Origin: Octopus vulgaris | Lineage: Eukaryota | Direction: 5' to 3' | Assembly: GCA_951406725.2 (NCBI GenBank) | Contig: OX597831.1 | Location: 81,096,001-81,160,000 of the forward strand | Length of the DNA stretch: 64,000 nt | Part shown: piece by piece, positions 13,842-60,748 of the stretch | How the letters are laid out: each line of letters begins with the position of its first letter | Position numbering within the stretch: position 1 is the stretch's first letter | Made by a program: the position numbers and the translations under genes | The notes under the pieces: model-generated | Told to the model about the DNA's origin: nothing | Seen by the model: the letters and a program-made list of their open reading frames with translations, nothing else | The model's database searches: none

Positions 13842-14193
13842 TCTATCTATTTTTTTAATATAAACTATCTTGACATTCTTTTTACTTTACATAAAATACT
13901 CTTTACATCCTACTGTTGTTTTATTGCCATCTATTTCCGAGTGTTATAATTTTATTGGTAAAATATTTTTCTGGGAAAGAATTACGATTTATAACATTGC
14001 TACTATAGGATATTACAGTTCTGTTTTACGAGTTTTCGTTTTACGATCGGTCTCCAGGAACAAATTTACTTGCATATCGAGGCATTACTTTATATATATA
14101 TGATTGATTCCAGTTTCAGCTTATGAGCTGTGGCCATAAATATATCCACATATATACACGCACATATATGTGTGTAAGTATATATATATATAT

Positions 14194-14515
14194 ATCAAAA
14201 TAAGCAATAAGTATATGCGAGGTAGGGTGGTACAATTGTTTCATGCTACTTAATTTTATTAAACACTGTAAGTATTACATCAGTTTTAAAATGTCGAGCA
14301 ATCTTCAGCCACTTGCTCGACATTTTAAAACTGATGTAATACTTACAGTGTTTAATAAAATGAAGTAGCATGAAACAATTGTATCACCCTACCTCGGATA
14401 TACTTGTTGCTTATTTTGATTATAATCGCCCCATTTGATTTATATGGATAATACCATACAAAATTCTGGTGCCTTTGACTTAAGTACCATATTCATCTGC
14501 ATCTAAATTTTGCTG
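14194..14515. mobile_element. (TA)n-flanked foldback element: arms 14194-14301 and 14313-14420, 11-nt spacer, ~95-nt one-sided tail; PLE-like inverted pLTR
   Basis: Arms are reverse complements with only a few mismatches; contains a hammerhead fold. Confidence 0.85.
14227..14312 (-). ncRNA. Type I hammerhead ribozyme, canonical core
   Basis: gugg-CUGAAGA-u-ugcu..agca-u-GAAA-C-aauu-G-UA^ccac: helix I 4 bp, palindromic ACAAUUGU helix III, GUA cleavage triplet (cut between 14231 and 14230). Confidence 0.8.
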
Positions 14516-14525
14516 ATATATATAT

Positions 14526-14667
14526 AAAATAATATGCTACAATTATACAATAGTCCAGATAAAACTCTGAGTTTCGGATGGCGAAGTGGAAATCCACAAC
14601 ACCATCTCTTCGGTTATTTGGCCATCCGAAAAACGCTATGAAAAAATACCGTTATTAAAGGGAAATT
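14526..14667 (-). mobile_element. (TA)n-anchored short element, second copy at 23524-23666; contains a hammerhead-like fold at 14555-14621
   Basis: Reverse-complement homology to 23524-23666; CCGAAGA..GAAA fold. Confidence 0.75.
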
Positions 14668-14765
14668 ACTGTTATAATTCCGCTACTTATATAAATTAAG
14701 ATTAAAAGTTCATAGTAAACACGTAAACATGGCTACTCATACGCTCACATGTCTGAAAAACGCTA

Positions 14766-16144: not shown

Positions 16145-16766
16145 CACACATGTATAGATATATGCATAGATGTGTATATGCACATATGTGTCCATGTGTT
16201 TGTATGAGTGTGTGTGCATACATGTAAATATACACATGGTCACGATATAAATATATATATATATATATATATGCACATACACACACACACACTCACGCAC
16301 GCACTTGCATACATACGAGGCATATTCGCTGATGGCTTTCCGTATGTTGAAGCGGAATTTGTCACGTTCTCTCTTCGCAAACATGAGTCTTTGGAGGATG
16401 ATACTGAATGAGAGAGAAGTCGAGGCAGATAGGCTGAATAAGGGAGGGAGAGAGAGGAGGAAATTGATAACGAAAGAAGGAAGAAGGAAAGAAAAGTAAA
16501 TTAGATGTGTGAAATGTTGCTATCTTCATACACACACACACACACACACACACATACACACGCACACGTATATATTTTTTAGTATTGCAGTCTGGTCTGT
16601 GTTATGTAGCTATGATGTCACTACCGAATGTTAGCAGATATATTTAGTTAAGTAGTCTTTTTTTACGTCCTTCACACACATACATACAACCACATACATA
16701 CGCATATTCAAGTGCATGTTTATATACGCGCATACGCATTTATGTGCGTGTGTGTGTATATATATA

Positions 16767-17074
16767 TAATAGAAATATTAAAATTACTAAGTCTCTCTAA
16801 AGGAGATTACGGCAGCGTTACTGGATATTAATAGTTATCGCCATACTAATATGGCAGTCTATAAATATAAGACTAAAGCTGTCGCTGATTAGCTCCAAGA
16901 GGCCAGGTTCGTGTGTCATATAGCTAGCTAGAGGCGATGGCCTCTTGGAGCTAATCAGCGACAGTTTTAGTCTTATATTTATAGACTGCCATATTAGTAT
17001 GGCGATAAATATAAATATCCAGTAACGCTGCCGTAATCTCCTTTAGAGAGACTTAGTAATTTTAATATTTCTAT

Positions 17075-17076
<2 letters not shown>
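16767..17076. mobile_element. (TA)n-flanked near-perfect palindrome: arms 16767-16905 and 16938-17076, 32-nt spacer, no tail
   Basis: 139-bp arms with about 3 mismatches by eye; TA repeats on both sides. Confidence 0.88.
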
Positions 17077-17135
<59 letters not shown>

Positions 17136-22420: not shown

Positions 22421-22810
22421 CCGTAAATCCTTAAAAATGTTTCAGCCCGGAGGCTGCGGCCATGCTGGGGCACCACCGTTGAATGAGCTACACTAGTATG
22501 TGAAACCACCTCTGATACGTGGCACTTGGTCAACTAGGGAGTTCGACGCCGCTGACCGTATCTGTGTCTCCTGCCGAGAAGAGATCCAGTTTAGTTTTAA
22601 AGAAACCCACATCCACACCATGCAAGTCTATCAGGTATTTAGGGAGGATGTTGAAGATCTGTGGTCCTCTGAAAACCAAGCTGTTGCAGTATCTGGTCCT
22701 GTATTTTGATGATGATGTTGGAATCTTTGGCACCATGCAGTGGCGCCCCGTTCAGCGGTTGGGGTAACTTTGAATGCCAAAGTTTGGGACAAGACCCTCC
22801 AGGATTTTCC
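22417..22810 (-). mobile_element. CR1-group LINE 3' fragment, same family as 57191-60628
   Basis: High identity to 57195-57616 (one ~21-bp deletion); tail abuts (TA)n. Confidence 0.9.
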
Positions 22811-23244
22811 AATCAAAGCCGAGAATACTGCAGGGAGACACACTCGCCCCATTTCTTTTCATCATTGTCGTTGACTATGTGCTACGTATGTCAGTTGATA
22901 CCATCTCTGGCAAGGGCTTTGAAATAAAACCAAGAAGTTCCAGACACCCAGCTGAATACTTGACAGACACTGACTTTGCTGACGACATCGCTCTTATCAG
23001 TGATTCTCTCTCCAATGCCCAGTCTCTTTTACAATCTTTTGAAAAAGCCTCAAATTGTGTAGGTCTTTACCTCAATGAGGCCAAGACTGAATATATAAAC
23101 AAGTGCCTGTCCAAAAGTGATTGCATCATCCATACTCTCAACAATGCGCCCTTAAATATGGTTTCTGATTACAAATATCTTGGGTCATACATATCACCAT
23201 CTGGGAAAGATTTTCTAACTAGAAAGGGTATGGCCTGGTCAGCC
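22811..23244 (+). pseudogene. RTE-clade reverse transcriptase fragment
   Basis: ILQGDTLAPFLFIIVVDYVLR..LTDTDFADDIALIS..GLYLNEAKTEY..YKYLGS..RKGMAWSA. Confidence 0.85.
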
Positions 23245-23525
23245 TCTACAACAATGTCCAGCAAACTGGACTCTCCTACCTTTCACAAGAGATGACACAG
23301 GTAGTAGTTTCCCATATATTTGCATTTTGGTTGGATGGCGCTTCTACAAGAGATTTTGAGCTCTCATAAGGAGGCGAGTGTAGGTTCCATCCAACCGCCT
23401 CTCAAGCTTCTTTGATAACGTCCAGGATTCTGAGCCATATAGTAGAATTGGTTCGACTGTGGCTTTGAAGATTTCAAGTTTGAAGTCTCTACTTAGATTT
23501 GATGACCAGATCTTATGCATGTCAT
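23245..23525 (-). pseudogene. Inverted continuation of the same RTE ORF
   Basis: NDMHKIWSSNLSRDFKLEIFKATVEPILLYGSESWTL..RRVQFAGHCCR reads on directly from AWSA but on the opposite strand. Confidence 0.85.
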
Positions 23526-23571
23526 TTCCCTTTATATAACGGTATTTTGTCATAACGTTTTTTAGATGGCC

Positions 23572-23634
23572 AGATAACCGAAGAGATGGTGTTGTGGATT
23601 TCCACTTCGGCATCTGAAACTCAGAGTTTTATCT
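23572..23634 (+). ncRNA. Type I hammerhead-like fold with U4C core, within element 23524-23666
   Basis: agauaa-CCGAAGA-gaug..[gugga/uccac]..cauc-u-GAAA-cuc-a-gag-UU^uuaucu; helix I 6 bp; conserved in the 14555-14621 copy. Confidence 0.6.
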
Positions 23635-23659
23635 TGACTATTGAGTAATTGTAACATAT

Positions 23660-23799
<140 letters not shown>

Positions 23800-25880: not shown

Positions 25881-25915
25881 AGAGAGTATTAGTGCGTATA
25901 TATATATATATATAT

Positions 25916-26542
25916 ATATGAATAAATGAAAGAATGGAGTCGAACGAAGATTTTAACAAAATTCCTTTACTCTCGACATATGTTTCGAAGACGGCATATT
26001 TTTAATTCCGAAGGAATGAAGGGTGAATTATGCCATATTCTCATCAGGAAAGATAAGGAGCCTCTTTCAGCCACAAGACGAACAACATTTTTTTGATGTT
26101 TGCCTACATGGTGACCATAGTGATAATGAGTGTTTTTTAAAAAATAATCCGTTATAAGCAATGACGTCAAAAGTGGGTAGAAGTAGGAAGTAGAAAAAAA
26201 TAGGTAGGGGACAATATGTATGCTGTATGTATGGGGATGTGCGGGTGTGTGCTTGTGTTAATGAGTGCGAGTGTTTGTGTATGTGTATGAGTGTGTGTAT
26301 ATAACTGCATTTGTGTCTGTGTGTGTGTATGTGTGATTGTGTGTGTGGGGAGAGTAAAGGAATTTTGTTAAAATCTTCGTTCGACTCCATTCTTTCATTT
26401 ATTCATATAAAAAACACAAATTTCCACACAAGAACACGGAGTTTCTACCCTTGACAGGTCGCTTCAACCGTGTTTTCTGACGTGAATTTTCTACCTAGGT
26501 ATCGATTAAACGAATTTTCCATGCTGGGATAATTCATTCACC

Positions 26543-28722: not shown

Positions 28723-28755
28723 ACACACACACACACATATGCTTATATACATATA

Positions 28756-28791
<36 letters not shown>

Positions 28792-28803
28792 TATATGTGT
28801 GTG

Positions 28804-52568: not shown

Positions 52569-52748
52569 CAGACAGACAGACAGGCACACAATGCCGGCCT
52601 TGTGCTAGACTTTTTGAAACCAATATTATTGGAAGGAATATACGAGGTCCTATTTTATGAAATTACATTATGGTCGATTCATGCATGTATATACATGTAT
52701 GTATATATGTGTGTGTGTGTGTTTGTGTGCGTCCGTGGGCGCGCGCGA

Positions 52749-52977
52749 ATATTTATATTTATATTAAGGGCATTATTATACATAAATGCCTCATGCTATG
52801 AGGACTCTTAATGTCAAAAGTTTTTTTTTTATTTTAAGAGTCCCTCATAGCACGAGGTATAGCGTGTGTAGTAATGCCCTTAATATTAATAAATATATTT
52901 TTAGGAATAATTAAACATTTTTCCTTTATGAGGTTTTTCACGCTGACTACTTGATAAATTCTTATAAAGATTTTATC

Positions 52978-53017: not shown

Positions 53018-53206
53018 TGTTTGGAGGTGATGCACAGGTATTATATATTAGAAGAACTAAGGTACTCAGAAATCTGGATGGTTTTATATTTACAGAAGAA
53101 TCCACTAGAGTTGATGCAAGCGCTAATATATGATTTATAAAAAACGTGACATATTAATAAAAATCTGTAAATATAGAACCATCCAGATTTCTGAGTACCT
53201 TATTTC

Positions 53207-53217
<11 letters not shown>
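53014..53217. mobile_element. (TA)n-flanked inverted element: left tail 53014-53042, arms 53043-53096 and 53164-53217
   Basis: ~54-bp inverted arms with few mismatches. Confidence 0.8.
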
Positions 53218-53437
<220 letters not shown>

Positions 53438-53643: not shown

Positions 53644-53980
53644 ATATTCTGTTGTGTCTGGGGAGAGTCATTCTCTTTTAGTGCCTTATAATTTAACACA
53701 CTCACCGGTAAAATTTCCACTCATTTCCTTCTTTATTTTTCTAAAATTTTCGTTGCGTCTTACAACTTTTTCAATAGAGAGTCAACAACTATTGAAAAGG
53801 TTGCAAGAGGCAACGGAAATTTTAGAAAAATATGGGAGGAAATGAATGGAAATTTTACCGGTGAGTGTGTTAGATTATAAGGCACGAAAAGAGCATGACT
53901 CTCTCTAACACAACAGAATATGCTTCAAGACACGAACTCACATAAAGAATCATGCAAACCGAATCTCCAAACGAAATGCG

Positions 53981-55165: not shown

Positions 55166-55568
55166 CAAGACGTTCTTCTCATAGCTCCGGCCGGTCAGTA
55201 GCCAAAGAAGCATATTTCAACTCAAGCTAGCAGTAACTTACCTTGTTTTTAGTCCCAGAACTCTTGAATTCTACTATTCTACTATTTTACTACCATCGGA
55301 GGATAAATTTACACAAATTTATATACAACCTGGCGAAACAAATATAAACGAAAGTTAAAACAAAGATTAATTCTAAAACTAGGCCCATGAGTACAATTAT
55401 TTTCCCTTGATTTGTATTAAACACTCCGCTCATTCTGATTTGTACTAAATACACTGAACTCCCCGCCACAAACCCAGATATCGACACAAACTTTTCAACG
55501 GTGCATTCACTATTATACACCAAGTCATCAATAACTGACACACAGTGTATAATACTGTCCCACTGAAT

Positions 55569-55730
55569 ATGGCCAATAATTTTCCAAAACGCCACTGGGC
55601 AGAAAACGAAATCCGTGCACTGATAAACGCTTGGTACACTCACCATAACGATTGTGTAAAAGCTAATGTCTACGGTAAAATCGCTGAAAAATTAGCGTCA
55701 CAATCCTTTCACAGATCTGTAAAATTCTGA
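55569..55730 (+). pseudogene. Truncated Myb/SANT-like (trihelix/MSANTD-type) DNA-binding domain ORF
   Basis: RHWAENEIRALINAW..NVYGKIAEKLASQSFHRS fits W...E+..LI..W..+Y..IA..L....+.R+; cut by the LINE at ~55725. Confidence 0.6.
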
Positions 55731-56945
55731 TGTCATATATCTTGACTTCAGTAAAACGTTCGACAGGGTTGACCATAACATTTTACTCTCAAAATTGGCA
55801 AATGTTGGAATCCGGGGAAAACTTCTACACTGGATTAAGTATTTCCTGGCGAATAGAACACAAGACGTTGTGGTCGATGGAATCCACTCAAGCCCAGCAA
55901 AATCCACCAGTGGTGTTCCTCAGGGGACTGTCTTGGGCCTGCTCTTCTTTATAATTTACATAAATGACCTTTCCAGCGTCGTAAATCACTGCAAAGTGAA
56001 AATATTTGCTGATGACACTAAGCTCCTGCAAATCCTCAATGAAGAAGAAAACCGAACTCAACTCCAGTCTGATCTATATGCTGTGAGTCAATGGGCAGAC
56101 AGAAACAAAATGCAACTGAACGAGGGAAAATTTGAGCTGATGCATTTTGGAAAAAGGTCTATACTAAAACAGCCATCCCTCTGGGGAACCGCTCACGGCA
56201 TCTAATAATATCAGAGACCTGGGTGAAATTGTTGATAACAATCTCAGTTGGAGTGTCCACATCAACAATAAGGTTGATATAGCTCGTAGGATGAGCTCCT
56301 TTATCTAAAGAATATTCCGGTCCAGAGAACAAGGTACATCATTCCACTTTTCTCCTCCTTTGTACGGCCACACCTCAAATACTGCTGCCCACTGTGGTCT
56401 CCCCATACAAGACAAAACATCTCGAGGATTGAATTACCCCAGAGGGCACTCACTAAACGAACTGAAGGCATGACTGATTTAGATTACTGGGACCGCCTTA
56501 AAGCCTTGAAACTCTACTCTCTCCAACATCATTTGTACGGTGTGGAGAATATACCGCCAGCATTGCCCAAATGACCTAAACATTAGTTCATCCAAGGCTG
56601 GGACCATGGGCCATACGTCCCCTGCCCAATTCAAGATCACAACATATAGGTACACTGCGACACAATTTCTTTTCCTCAATAGGCCCTGCCCTGTTTAACA
56701 TTGTCCCGAAATTGTTTAAAGAGGAAAAGGATCCCATCACCTTTAAACGGAGTCTGGACAGATTTCTTCAAGGAATACCAGATAAGCCACCCATACCTGG
56801 ATACAACTCACTCAACAAGAACTCACTACTTGAATGGACTATAAACAAAACTTGACTTAAAAAGGATTTAGATAATCCTATCAGGTGGTGCTATTAAGTT
56901 AAACATGGCCTGGACCAATCATTGGTCGAAACATATCTAAGGTTT
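55725..56945 (+). pseudogene. 5'-truncated degenerate CR1-group LINE (RT to 3' tail)
   Basis: DVIYLDFSKTFDRV, SGVPQGTVLG, IFADDTKL, RDLG, YCCPLWSP; frameshifts; tail ends in (TA)n. Confidence 0.9.
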
Positions 56946-57270: not shown

Positions 57271-59784
57271 CTAGTTTGTGAATCCACCTCTGATACGTGG
57301 CACTTGATCAACAAGGGAGTTCGATGCTGCTGCCCGCATCCGTGTCTCCTGTCGTGAGGTAGGTTCATCTGGGACTCCCAACAAGAAGAGATCCAGTTTA
57401 GTTTTAAAGAAACCCACATCCACACCATGTAAGTCTCTCAGGCATTTAGGGAGGATGTTAAAGAGCTGTGGTCCTCTGAAACCCAAGCTGTTGCAGTATC
57501 TGGACCTGTATTTTGATGGTGATGTTGGAATCCTTTGCACCACGCAGCGGCGCCCTGTTCTGCGGTTGGAGTAACTTTGAATGCCAAAGTTTGGGACAAG
57601 ACCCTCCAGGATTTTCCAGATGTATATCACTGCATATCTCTCCCGCCTCCGCTCCAGGGAGAAGAGGTTTAATACCTTCAGTCTTTCCCAGTAGCTGACA
57701 TTTTGCATTGAGACGATTTTCTTTGTGTAGCTTCTCTGAGTTGCTTCGAGTTCTGCTGTTTGTTTTATATTGTGTGGTGACCAAAGTTGGGAGCAGTAGT
57801 CCAAGCGGCTGAGGACAAATGTTTTCCATAGGACCATCAGTGTCTCCTTCTCTCTTGTTCTGAAAGTTCGGAGAATCCATCCAGCTAGCCGTCTGCATTT
57901 TATCACCAGATTAGCAATATGCATTTGGAAAGATGCATCATTGCTCATGTCAATGCCCAGGTCACGCACTGATTTTGACTCAGGGATTGCAATTCTTCCT
58001 GGGCCAGTGTATCCAGTCTTCACGTCATTTACCTTTGTGTGCCAGTAGCGCAGGGCCTGGAACTTACCTGCATTAAACTGCATGTTGTTGTCCTCAGCCC
58101 ACCTGTATATTGTGTCCAGCTCATGTTGCAGATGCGCAATATTTTCAGGGTTTTGTATTGCGTGGGAAACTTTTGTGTCATCTGCATAGCTAGCAAGGGT
58201 GGTCATCGTAGCAACTGAAGGCATGTCTGAAAGGGCCACTATGAACATCAGTGGCCCCAAGACAGTGCCCTGTGGGACACCGCTTGTTATTTGCGTTTCC
58301 CTGGAGGTGGCTCCATTGCTCACAACTGCCTGTTTTCTGTATTTTAGGAAGTTGTGCAGCCACTCTCCAAGTTTCCCGCCTATGCCGAGACCACGCAGTT
58401 TGTGACAGATCATACCATGGTCGACTTTATCAAAGGCTTTTGCAAAGTCAAGATATATTACATCCACATTTGAGCCATTTAGTAGCTGTTTCAACACCCA
58501 GTCATAGTGTTGCAGGAGCTGTGTTAGGCAGCCTCTACCTGGTCGAAATCCATGCTGGGTGTCAGACAGTAAGTCATTTTCTTCAAGGAACATGATTAGT
58601 TTCTTACGGACTATTCGTTCCATGACTTTGCTGATGTGTGAGGTCAGAGAGATAGGCCTATAATTTTTAGCATCTGCTCTGCTACCTCCCTTATGGATAG
58701 GGCATATTACCCCCTCTTTCAGTTTGACTGGGAGCTTACCACTTGCAAGAAAGCTCTGAAAAAGAAGCTGTAGCGGTTTTGCAAGGGCTCGTTTGCACGA
58801 TTTGAGAAGGATCGCTGGGAATCCATCAGGTCCAGCAGCTGAGTTTGTGTCAATCTCATCAATGGCTAGTGTGATATCATCTTCTTCGATGTTGATGTAC
58901 TCAATTTTTGTCTCTTTGGCCGCTGGTAAAGTGGCAAAGAATTCTTCTGGGTTGTTTACTTGCCTGTGTCCTAGAGGTGTAGTGAACACACTTTGGAACT
59001 GTTCGTTCAGTATTTCACTTATCCTCGTGGGATTTCCTGTGAGAGAGCCATCTTTTTGGAAGAGAGGTCCTATTCTCTGGTGCACTGTGGCTGTCTCTTT
59101 GGCAAACTTAAAGAAAGCTTTAGGGTTTGATTTTATATTTTCTATTACCCAAGCTTCTTTATCTGCTATCTCCTTTTCATGGGACTGATGTAGACTTTTC
59201 TCAGTTTCCATTAGCATTCTTTCGAGCCGAGACTTCTCACCACTTTTGGTGTGCTTGCTCAGGCGGTTTGCAATCCTTGTCCGTCGTCTCATAAGAATCC
59301 TCCTTTCTCTAGGGATCCTGTTTTTGTTCTTGTGTGTGCTGGCCCTGCACATTGGGACATATTTGTCACATATGGCTTGTATTATGGACATGAAGTGTTT
59401 GTGTTTCATGTTTATGTCCGGTGTGGAGAGACATTCAGGCCAGTCCTGTTTGAGGATCTCTTTCTCAATCGACTTCCAGTTGGCTTTATGAAAGTTTAAG
59501 TTGGAGAGATGGTGGGTGCTTCGTATAGGCTGTGTGTCTGCGGGGGCTTTTGTTCCATACATAGACAGCTCTATTATGTTGTGATCCGAGATCATTGTCG
59601 GCATCACATTAACATTATGGATAATATCCATATTGTTTGTGAAGCAGAGATCCAGTATATTATCTGCCCTTGTTGGTTGCAGAACTATTTGCTCCATGAA
59701 AGAGGCATTTGTGAGATGGAGCAGGGACTCCACCTGTGCCTGCTGATGGTGTGTCATCCCTGGGAGCATCTGCCCCCAGGCCAT
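57271..59784 (-). CDS. LINE ORF2: C-terminal part of APE endonuclease plus reverse transcriptase (837 aa open)
   Basis: RADNILDLCF, SDHNII, NYRPISLTS, QHGFR, YLDFAKAFDKVDH, SGVPQGTVLGP, YADDTK. Confidence 0.93.
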   Translation of the reverse strand: MAWGQMLPGMTHHQQAQVESLLHLTNASFMEQIVLQPTRADNILDLCFTNNMDIIHNVNVMPTMISDHNIIELSMYGTKAPADTQPIRSTHHLSNLNFHKANWKSIEKEILKQDWPECLSTPDINMKHKHFMSIIQAICDKYVPMCRASTHKNKNRIPRERRILMRRRTRIANRLSKHTKSGEKSRLERMLMETEKSLHQSHEKEIADKEAWVIENIKSNPKAFFKFAKETATVHQRIGPLFQKDGSLTGNPTRISEILNEQFQSVFTTPLGHRQVNNPEEFFATLPAAKETKIEYINIEEDDITLAIDEIDTNSAAGPDGFPAILLKSCKRALAKPLQLLFQSFLASGKLPVKLKEGVICPIHKGGSRADAKNYRPISLTSHISKVMERIVRKKLIMFLEENDLLSDTQHGFRPGRGCLTQLLQHYDWVLKQLLNGSNVDVIYLDFAKAFDKVDHGMICHKLRGLGIGGKLGEWLHNFLKYRKQAVVSNGATSRETQITSGVPQGTVLGPLMFIVALSDMPSVATMTTLASYADDTKVSHAIQNPENIAHLQHELDTIYRWAEDNNMQFNAGKFQALRYWHTKVNDVKTGYTGPGRIAIPESKSVRDLGIDMSNDASFQMHIANLVIKCRRLAGWILRTFRTREKETLMVLWKTFVLSRLDYCSQLWSPHNIKQTAELEATQRSYTKKIVSMQNVSYWERLKVLNLFSLERRRERYAVIYIWKILEGLVPNFGIQSYSNRRTGRRCVVQRIPTSPSKYRSRYCNSLGFRGPQLFNILPKCLRDLHGVDVGFFKTKLDLFLLGVPDEPTSRQETRMRAAASNSLVDQVPRIRGGFTN

Positions 59785-60282
59785 TCCACATTGGGGAGGT
59801 TAAAGTCACCCATGAAGAATACACTGTTGTGCTGTTCAAGGTTGGTGAGGACTTCTCCTATTTTTGTTAGGCAGTCTTCAAACATGCCTGAGTGTTTTGG
59901 GGCATCTGGTGGGCGATATGTAGTGCATATGACGATATTCAGTTGTCTTATGTGTACAATTTGAGTTTCACATACTGAGTTTGAATATGACAGCAGGACC
60001 TGGGGCGTGAAGTCATCTCGGATGTACATTGCAACTCCACCATGGCTCCTCCCTTTTCTATCTGTGCGTATGACTGCATATTGCGGCATGTGTATTTCTG
60101 CATCACCTATATCGGGTTCAAGATGCGTTTCTGTGAGTGCCATGCATATAGCTTGATTGCATGTCACAAGGTCTCTCAGGAATGAAATTTTCTTTTTACA
60201 GTTTCCGCGCAGCAGCCCTCCTACATTCAGTAGAAATATTTTTGTGGTGTGTGTGTTGGTGTTGGTGTCTGTGGTGGCCATC
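59773..60282 (-). CDS. LINE ORF2 N-terminal APE endonuclease part, separated by a single frameshift at the C5 run 59773-59777
   Basis: LLNVGGL, LTETHL, RTDRKGRSHGGVAMYI, TYRPP, MGDFNLP. Start codon uncertain. Confidence 0.88.
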
Positions 60283-60748
60283 CTGCATCTGTTGGAGGTG
60301 GCCTTATGTGGTGGTAGTTCCAGCTTTGTGCTTGTAGCCAGGTCAGCTGCTGAACAATTTTTTGTGCCATGCACAAAAAGACTGCTGTTCAGCTGCCGCC
60401 CTTCTCACATCTGGGTGAAGCTGGCCACCTGTTGGGTTTCCGCGCACCACATCTGCATACCGTCTTTCAGTAGTGGTCAGTGCGCTTTTTTCCCTTCTTT
60501 TAACTTTTTGTTTTTGTTTTTGTTTTTGTTCTCCCTGAGGGAGGGACCTCTGTCTCGCGTCCGTGCGGTTTTGGTAGGGCCTCCGATGTGCAAAGCGACA
60601 GTTTGCACCTTCAACGCCGTACCAGCATATATATACATCATATAATTAAGGGCTAAAGTGGGTTATTCTAAAGCCAATACACTGATTTATCCACTTATAA
60701 TCCCCTTGCTACAGGAGAATTGAAACTGACTTCATCCTATATTGCTAG

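Follow-up and report, generated by a model that had tools for sequence, protein, structure and literature searches.

A 227-bp foldback at positions 14194–14420 of the 64-kb window (the whole stretch of DNA analysed here) is probably the 3′ stub of a Hydra-type Penelope-like retroelement (PLE), or of a derivative that is non-autonomous, of which two 5′-truncated copies entered a TA run head to head. The same reading, held with equal confidence, includes a minimal type I hammerhead motif borne by the stub and predicted to cut only as a dimer.

Two unequal truncated copies form the foldback

The insertion was delimited by an arm walk, self BLAST and the divergence of its repeat family beyond 14312. 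Its parts are as follows:

14194–14420: head-to-head insertion, 227 bp
14194–14312, minus strand: longer copy, 119 nt, with a complete hammerhead motif and a 33-nt 3′ tail
14313–14420, plus strand: shorter inverted copy, 108 nt, with U10.1 as its first base
14302–14312, minus strand: spacer, made of the helix I 5′ strand (14312–14309) and the core box CUGAAGA (14308–14302)
14180–14193 and 14421–14426: (TA)n target run at the left end of the hairpin, and TATAAT at its right end

The arms (14194–14301 and 14313–14420) measure 108 bp apiece and differ at 4 pairs of positions: 14252/14362, 14230/14384, 14217/14397 and 14208/14406. An initial annotation of this DNA had described the 11-nt spacer between 108-bp arms as the reverse complement of CUGAAGA together with the helix I 5′ strand; the arm walk bears this out, the minus-strand reading of the spacer being GTGGCTGAAGA. 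Its statement that a whole ribozyme is encoded on the minus strand only also stands. The companion claim, that the plus arm has no core, does not: this arm retains helix II, GAAAC, helix III, GUA and the tail, and is missing only the CUGANGA box (here CUGAAGA) and the helix I 5′ strand. The spacer is a mere 11-nt length difference between two truncated copies.

The outer ends of both arms fall on the same base, beside TA, and no one-sided PLE tail of 30–40 nt, an optional feature as target-site duplication is, can be seen. The outer flanks of the two arms differ from one another, and any target-site duplication is inseparable from the (TA)n run at the hairpin ends. Self BLAST found no further copies of the hairpin element elsewhere in the window. 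A 155-bp repeat (14516–14669, 92% like 23521–23675) begins at a TA-rich run immediately right of the hairpin; the left flank (13870–14140) consists of two other high-depth repeats, with ~14100–14140 the deepest segment in 3 of the 4 sequencing runs compared below.

The minus strand carries a minimal hammerhead motif

That a hammerhead motif lies on the minus strand and coincides with the spacer was confirmed by the arm walk and a descriptor scan, its cleavage being predicted. Its elements are:

14312 to 14227, minus strand: type I hammerhead motif, 86 nt
14227–14230, minus strand: 3′ strand of helix I (GUGG/CCAC, 4 bp)
14243–14301, minus strand: helix II, with U·U at its base, a 4-bp stem (14300–14297/14247–14244) and a 49-nt extension
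14231–14242, minus strand: GAAA box (14242–14239), helix III palindrome (14239–14232) and predicted cleavage after the A at 14231

Three helices surround the core: helix I (4 bp) is open, helix II has 4 bp plus the extension, and helix III has 2 bp. The core boxes CUGAAGA and GAAA are present, the cleavage triplet is GUA, A15.1 pairs with U16.1 and position 17 is an H. Positions 10.1 and 11.1, which are usually a G-C pair, hold U·U. This does not disqualify the motif as a type I hammerhead, since U-U at 10.1/11.1 is a natural and the best-tolerated mismatch (PMC3088659) and the commonest state among Hydra-clade PLE hammerheads, found at the helix II base in 14 of 25 families by our own count in the rows of PMC8557442 File S2. 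The hammerhead is not canonical, contrary to the first description: the motif is minimal, its helix III has 2 bp, Rfam hammerhead models gave no match at the gathering score, and no hammerhead appeared among the 45 matches listed at E up to 10. Rfam matches to miRNA precursors, all under their gathering scores, were set aside as reflecting the long hairpin only.

Two loci in the window fitted the type I descriptor, whereas shuffles averaged 0.047 (300 block-wise dinucleotide shuffles) and no shuffled match had a helix III palindrome of 8 nt. A second pattern, drawn from published Hydra-clade hammerheads and with its gap widened to fit the hairpin motif, matched once in the window and in 0 of 100 shuffles. 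Among the variant rows listed (40 of 105), 2 fall inside the element and none in the core, too few for covariation scoring.

In folding predictions, the constrained hammerhead fold of the isolated motif lies at most 2.2 kcal/mol from the free ensemble. Helix III is an 8-nt palindrome, ACAAUUGU, that gives 2 bp in the monomer. For two 86-nt motifs, the minimum-energy co-fold is a double hammerhead (−30.2 kcal/mol, with −9.9 kcal/mol for a single monomer), with swapped helices I and a predicted 8-bp helix III. We model the motif as a minimal dimer-type hammerhead, with cleavage predicted in the dimer only. A 2017 paper reportedly describes small hammerheads linked to PLEs whose cleavage takes place in dimers.

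Helix II had been characterised as an unusually long loop of ~60 nt with a U-U closing pair. The U-U is there, and the length comes to 59 nt between the core boxes and 49 nt inside the stem (UGCU/AGCA). Unusually long is also apt, given loops of 3–10 nt in 25 of 25 Hydra-clade rows of PMC8557442, a range that is typical of these elements and not defining; loop is not, the 49 nt being predicted to fold as an irregular extended stem. This long extension hides the motif from Rfam.

At position 14252 the first arm carries A, whereas C, the base of the second arm (14362), makes up >99% of the depth in all 4 runs. The predicted fold of the extension is −8.8 kcal/mol (z −1.1) for the first arm and −12.8 kcal/mol (z −2.8) for the second arm with the family base, the family C re-forming one pair in the extension. 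The A is a private change of the ribozyme-bearing arm and is predicted to weaken helix II.

The arm is an abundant repeat, the foldback is not

Parts of 13870–14740 occur in 20 of 24 listed sequencing runs, from four organisms; each run holds at most 0.28 of the query words, so the samples are relatives or other individuals. Four runs from three related organisms (X1, X2, X7 and X8, the last possibly RNA, which is a guess) were compared over 13870–14335, except 14147–14206. Summed contig depth over the arm was ~4–5 × 10^4 in X1, 0.7–1.1 × 10^6 in X2, 4 × 10^5 in X7 and 4–8 × 10^3 in X8, where summed depth is not copy number and single-contig depths among the contigs listed were 4–143. The arm is an abundant, very high-depth repeat.

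Coverage passes through the spacer and ends at 14312, where 20, 47, 27 and 5 contigs in the four runs branch into a shared upstream sequence starting ATATAGAATTTTT, which differs from the second arm. Depth at the start of the second arm (14318–14333) is 0 in 3 of the 4 runs and 86.5 in X2. Copies continue beyond the catalytic strand into upstream sequence of their own, so this strand belongs to the normal make-up of the repeat family, and the foldback is not a family feature. Two observations, the divergence of family contigs at 14312 and the zero depth at the second arm's start in 3 of 4 runs, show that the foldback is no design of the family. The hairpin junction is private or rare; X2 depth across it (86.5 and 32.9) is at single-copy level, a weak hint of the junction in another sample. 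At position 14228, 5 X1 contigs share a different stretch right after the cleavage site before returning to the sequence of the tail; they may represent a subfamily in which the 3′ side of helix I differs.

Read-through RNA would bury the ribozyme

The initial annotation had proposed that read-through RNA would fold into double-stranded RNA sequestering the ribozyme. As a prediction this holds: in a 227-nt minus-strand read-through, the ribozyme fold is predicted to be 88.7 kcal/mol worse than the long hairpin. Sequestration looks, however, like a by-product. Growing-prefix folding favoured the hairpin from the first prefix that includes helix II; the hairpin is predicted to form as helix II emerges because the antisense arm is transcribed first. 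Any read-through RNA here would be a long duplex, so the copy at 14194–14420 is probably inert as a ribozyme. The models place burial at this locus with no switchable state, and the buried ribozyme is probably an accident, not a switch.

A second hammerhead and other foldbacks share the window

Further features in the window include:

25970–26052, minus strand: second type I hammerhead motif, of unrelated sequence and the same build (descriptor scan, self BLAST)
26350–26409, plus strand: inverted copy of the second element's 3′ end, 60 of 60 identical
16757–17086: foldback with 149-bp arms, 3 mismatches, a 32-nt spacer and (TA)n on both sides
52748–52899, ~53040–53220 and 53644–53921: three older AT- or TA-flanked foldbacks of differing sequence

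The second motif has 54 nt between its core boxes, G-C at 10.1/11.1, a palindromic helix III and a GUC site; its helix II extension has a z of −2.9, and it lies ~50 nt from a (TA)n run. The second element, 12 kb from the hairpin, is TA-anchored with an inverted 3′ copy, and that copy starts at 26350, the first base past the second motif's predicted cleavage site. Within 25915–26409, ~300 nt of partly microsatellite-like sequence separate the second motif from the inverted 60/60 copy.

The type I descriptor detected no hammerhead in at least 4 further TA-flanked foldbacks of other sequence, of which the one at 16757–17086 is possibly another truncated inverted PLE end. Since foldbacks are frequent in the window, one that holds a ribozyme is less surprising. 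A 75% match at 28740–28799 was rejected as microsatellite.

No PLE reverse transcriptase (RT) or GIY-YIG gene was found in the window when 274 of 274 complexity-filtered open frames of at least 45 aa were searched; these frames gave LINE-type RT/AP-endonuclease, a Myb-like piece and weak DUF matches only. Nor was there a PLE gene among the window's 7 long ORFs. The Hydra clade is defined by an ORF with RT and C-terminal GIY-YIG carrying RWK, DKT and CxCX5C motifs, and our assignment to it is putative, made from the motif, its position and the target. Microsatellites abound in the window, which gives the impression of an octopus-like host; its DNA is of animal type and contains remnants of LINE RT and AP-endonuclease. 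A LINE at 57271–60404 (minus strand) comprises an AP-endonuclease piece and an 837-aa RT frame; additional RT fragments lie at 22774–23295 and 55723–56205, and a Myb/SANT-like domain fragment (55539–55727; Pfam PF13837, E 3.9e-6) stands directly before the latter.

Wider scans gave candidates that we discarded: the single metagenome match, a 51% GC bacterial-type coding stretch with no similarity to the window, was put down to chance, and none of 5 matches in prokaryote genomes and 1 in a viral scan had a hammerhead context. In D. virilis an intron ends at helix I (PMC4209133); this reading was rejected for the hairpin, the family's upstream sequence having no AG there.

Origin of the insertion

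The favoured origin would run as follows. The element's nuclease would nick both strands of the TA target, and reverse transcription would begin at the same 3′ point on either side and proceed through the tail into the ribozyme. Synthesis of one cDNA would halt after 119 nt, where helix I ends, and that of the other after 108 nt, on reaching the base of helix II; the resulting ends would then be joined without microhomology. Snap-back of one cDNA would also give this product, but in the loose-end consensus the bases that come next in the family differ from those with which the second arm starts, and primed snap-back is unsupported. In the parent element, two motifs would pair through the 8-nt palindrome into a double hammerhead that processes the transcript.

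It is unlikely that the sequence descends instead from a hammerhead-bearing non-LTR retrozyme or SINE-like unit, with the hairpin arising later and independently of insertion, by a DNA-level fold-back (a template switch during repair or replication). Such a source would account for the absence of a linked PLE gene and for a junction without microhomology, and animal retrozymes do have type I hammerheads with a weak palindromic helix III, a U-U variant among them (PMC7229834). Self BLAST, however, shows neither tandem head-to-tail monomers nor another copy in the window, and the outer ends share one base beside TA, which is what insertion with a fixed 3′ starting point would give. Retrozymes have themselves been proposed as PLE derivatives (bioRxiv 10.64898/2026.07.22.740005), so this account departs from the PLE stub mainly in how the hairpin formed.

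A selected device, in which the antisense arm switches the ribozyme off or hairpin RNA feeds small RNAs against the family, strikes us as quite improbable. The 108-bp duplex, if transcribed, would be a Dicer-type substrate; the folding models predict full sequestration, the junction has both of its ends at ribozyme boundaries, and the X2 depth means that it may occur in another sample. Yet a gap of 89 kcal/mol leaves nothing to be switched, 3 of 4 runs lack the junction, the private change at 14252 weakens helix II, and at least four other TA-flanked foldbacks in the same window have other sequences. Still less credible is a DNA transposon of the MITE or foldback kind, with terminal inverted repeats that are long, a TA target and the hammerhead as passenger. 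Long inverted arms, a short spacer, TA flanks and high depth would suit it, but its family should repeat the junction, and the run comparison, with contigs diverging at 14312 and zero depth at the second arm's start in 3 of 4 runs, largely refutes it. Least probable of all is a sequencing or assembly fold-back artefact. No contig piece among those listed covers the entire stretch, and assemblies are troubled by inverted PLE structures (PMC8557442); an artefact would duplicate one arm exactly, whereas here 4 of 108 arm sites are mismatched and the outer flanks are unlike. We therefore retain the truncated, head-to-head PLE stub as the best account.

Implications for PLE hammerheads

The head-to-head inverted arrangement is already known, and as a ribozyme hidden by design the hairpin matters little, since it is the expected leftover of a Penelope-like insertion. 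More speculative, and in our judgement rather doubtful, is the idea of a lineage with thousands of long-helix-II PLE hammerheads, in at least two families, that descriptors and Rfam have missed, and in which the ribozyme sets the inner ends of inverted stubs. All 3 placeable junctions fall on ribozyme landmarks (the helix I start, the helix II base and the cleavage site, 26350); this placement was noticed after the fact, with n = 3, and may be chance. If true, inverted stubs would be a genomic record of cleaved, folded RNA as the in vivo template, in contrast with the in vitro finding of unprocessed RNA as the main template. The long helix II hides an abundant ribozyme family from standard searches, so hammerheads are probably undercounted in genomes of this kind. 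PMC11167929 and PMC8557442 treat the role of PLE hammerheads as open, and the distance from the cleavage site to the point at which inverted stubs begin bears on whether cleaved RNA is reverse transcribed in vivo. In the open-licence literature we found neither the hairpin family nor any animal PLE hammerhead whose helix II is structured and 50 nt long.

Comparison with known systems

Craig et al. 2021 (PMC8557442) list Hydra-clade PLE families and their hammerheads in Files S1 and S2. In File S2 the commonest parse runs stem I, ctga[t/a]gat, tgc[c/t], loop, [g/a]gca, tgaa, short stem III, H, stem I, and the hairpin motif parses in the same way. With Hydra-clade PLEs, Penelope-1_HM, -5_HM, -13_HM and Hydra-1_cRog among them, it has in common type I topology, a 4-bp helix I, CUGANGAU followed by a UGC stem, U before GAAA, a short near-palindromic helix III and an inverted 5′-truncated copy. 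Penelope-13_HM has such a copy, with its hammerhead on the other strand. The target is (TA)n in 26 of 27 families of File S1. By our working from the position and size columns, ~30–40 nt separate the end of the hammerhead from the 3′ end of Penelope-1_HM and Penelope-3_HM; the hairpin motif is placed likewise, 33 nt from the arm end, with (TA)n beyond. Unlike Hydra-clade PLEs, the shorter copy ends inside the ribozyme, no ORF is linked, and loop II is a structured 49 nt. Two spike-moss PLE-X rows marked deviant in PMC8557442 have a loop II of ~29–35 nt; the core search of that paper used 7–17-nt spacers, and 35–50-nt "half-core" cases were noted. A Hydra element, Hydra-1_Obim, is listed there for Octopus bimaculoides, and the hairpin hammerhead differs in sequence from its hammerhead row. 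We sought 9 short window motifs in the available supplement and found none, where line breaks and cut long runs may hide matches. Beyond the Hydra-1_Obim row, no octopus-genome hammerhead surveys were found in the open-licence literature, and the available text of PMC13282606 does not mention ribozymes.

The axolotl retrozyme hammerhead HHR_Amex2 (Cervera and de la Peña 2020, PMC7229834) is likewise type I, with U-U at the helix II base and a 2-bp helix III, and cleaves better as dimers. Non-LTR retrozymes in that paper are tandem repeats of 150–450 bp yielding circular RNAs, whereas the window shows no tandem.

Closer parallels come from PLE hammerheads. In Cervera and de la Peña 2014 (PMC4209133), minimal PLE hammerheads are dimer-type and weak in vitro; they are, as ours is, mostly found in solo copies of truncated elements, and opposite-strand pairs lie 100–700 bp apart. 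The pseudo-LTR hammerheads of that study share with ours a short helix I, a palindromic helix III for dimers and opposite-strand pairing. Their consensus has an extra base after A9, G10.1-C11.1 and a helix II of 4–8 bp with a short loop, against the U·U and long helix II extension of the hairpin motif.

Inverted 5′-truncated copies and head-to-head junctions are typical of PLEs in PMC8557442 and Arkhipova et al. 2013 (PMC3846280), the latter describing head-to-head inverted pseudo-LTRs as the usual form and proposing self-priming. The Adineta vaga Penelope junctions of that study resemble the hairpin in having head-to-head inverted terminal repeats of which the inverted one is shorter; those junctions have small palindromes or overlaps, and the repeats flank a coding body, often with an 8–10-bp target duplication, whereas the hairpin consists of two stubs only. 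In Frangieh et al. 2024 (PMC11167929), the hammerhead is protein-assisted and dispensable in vitro, reads ending at the cleavage site are absent, and a purified PLE protein acting on AT-rich DNA nicks the two strands and extends each from the same RNA start.
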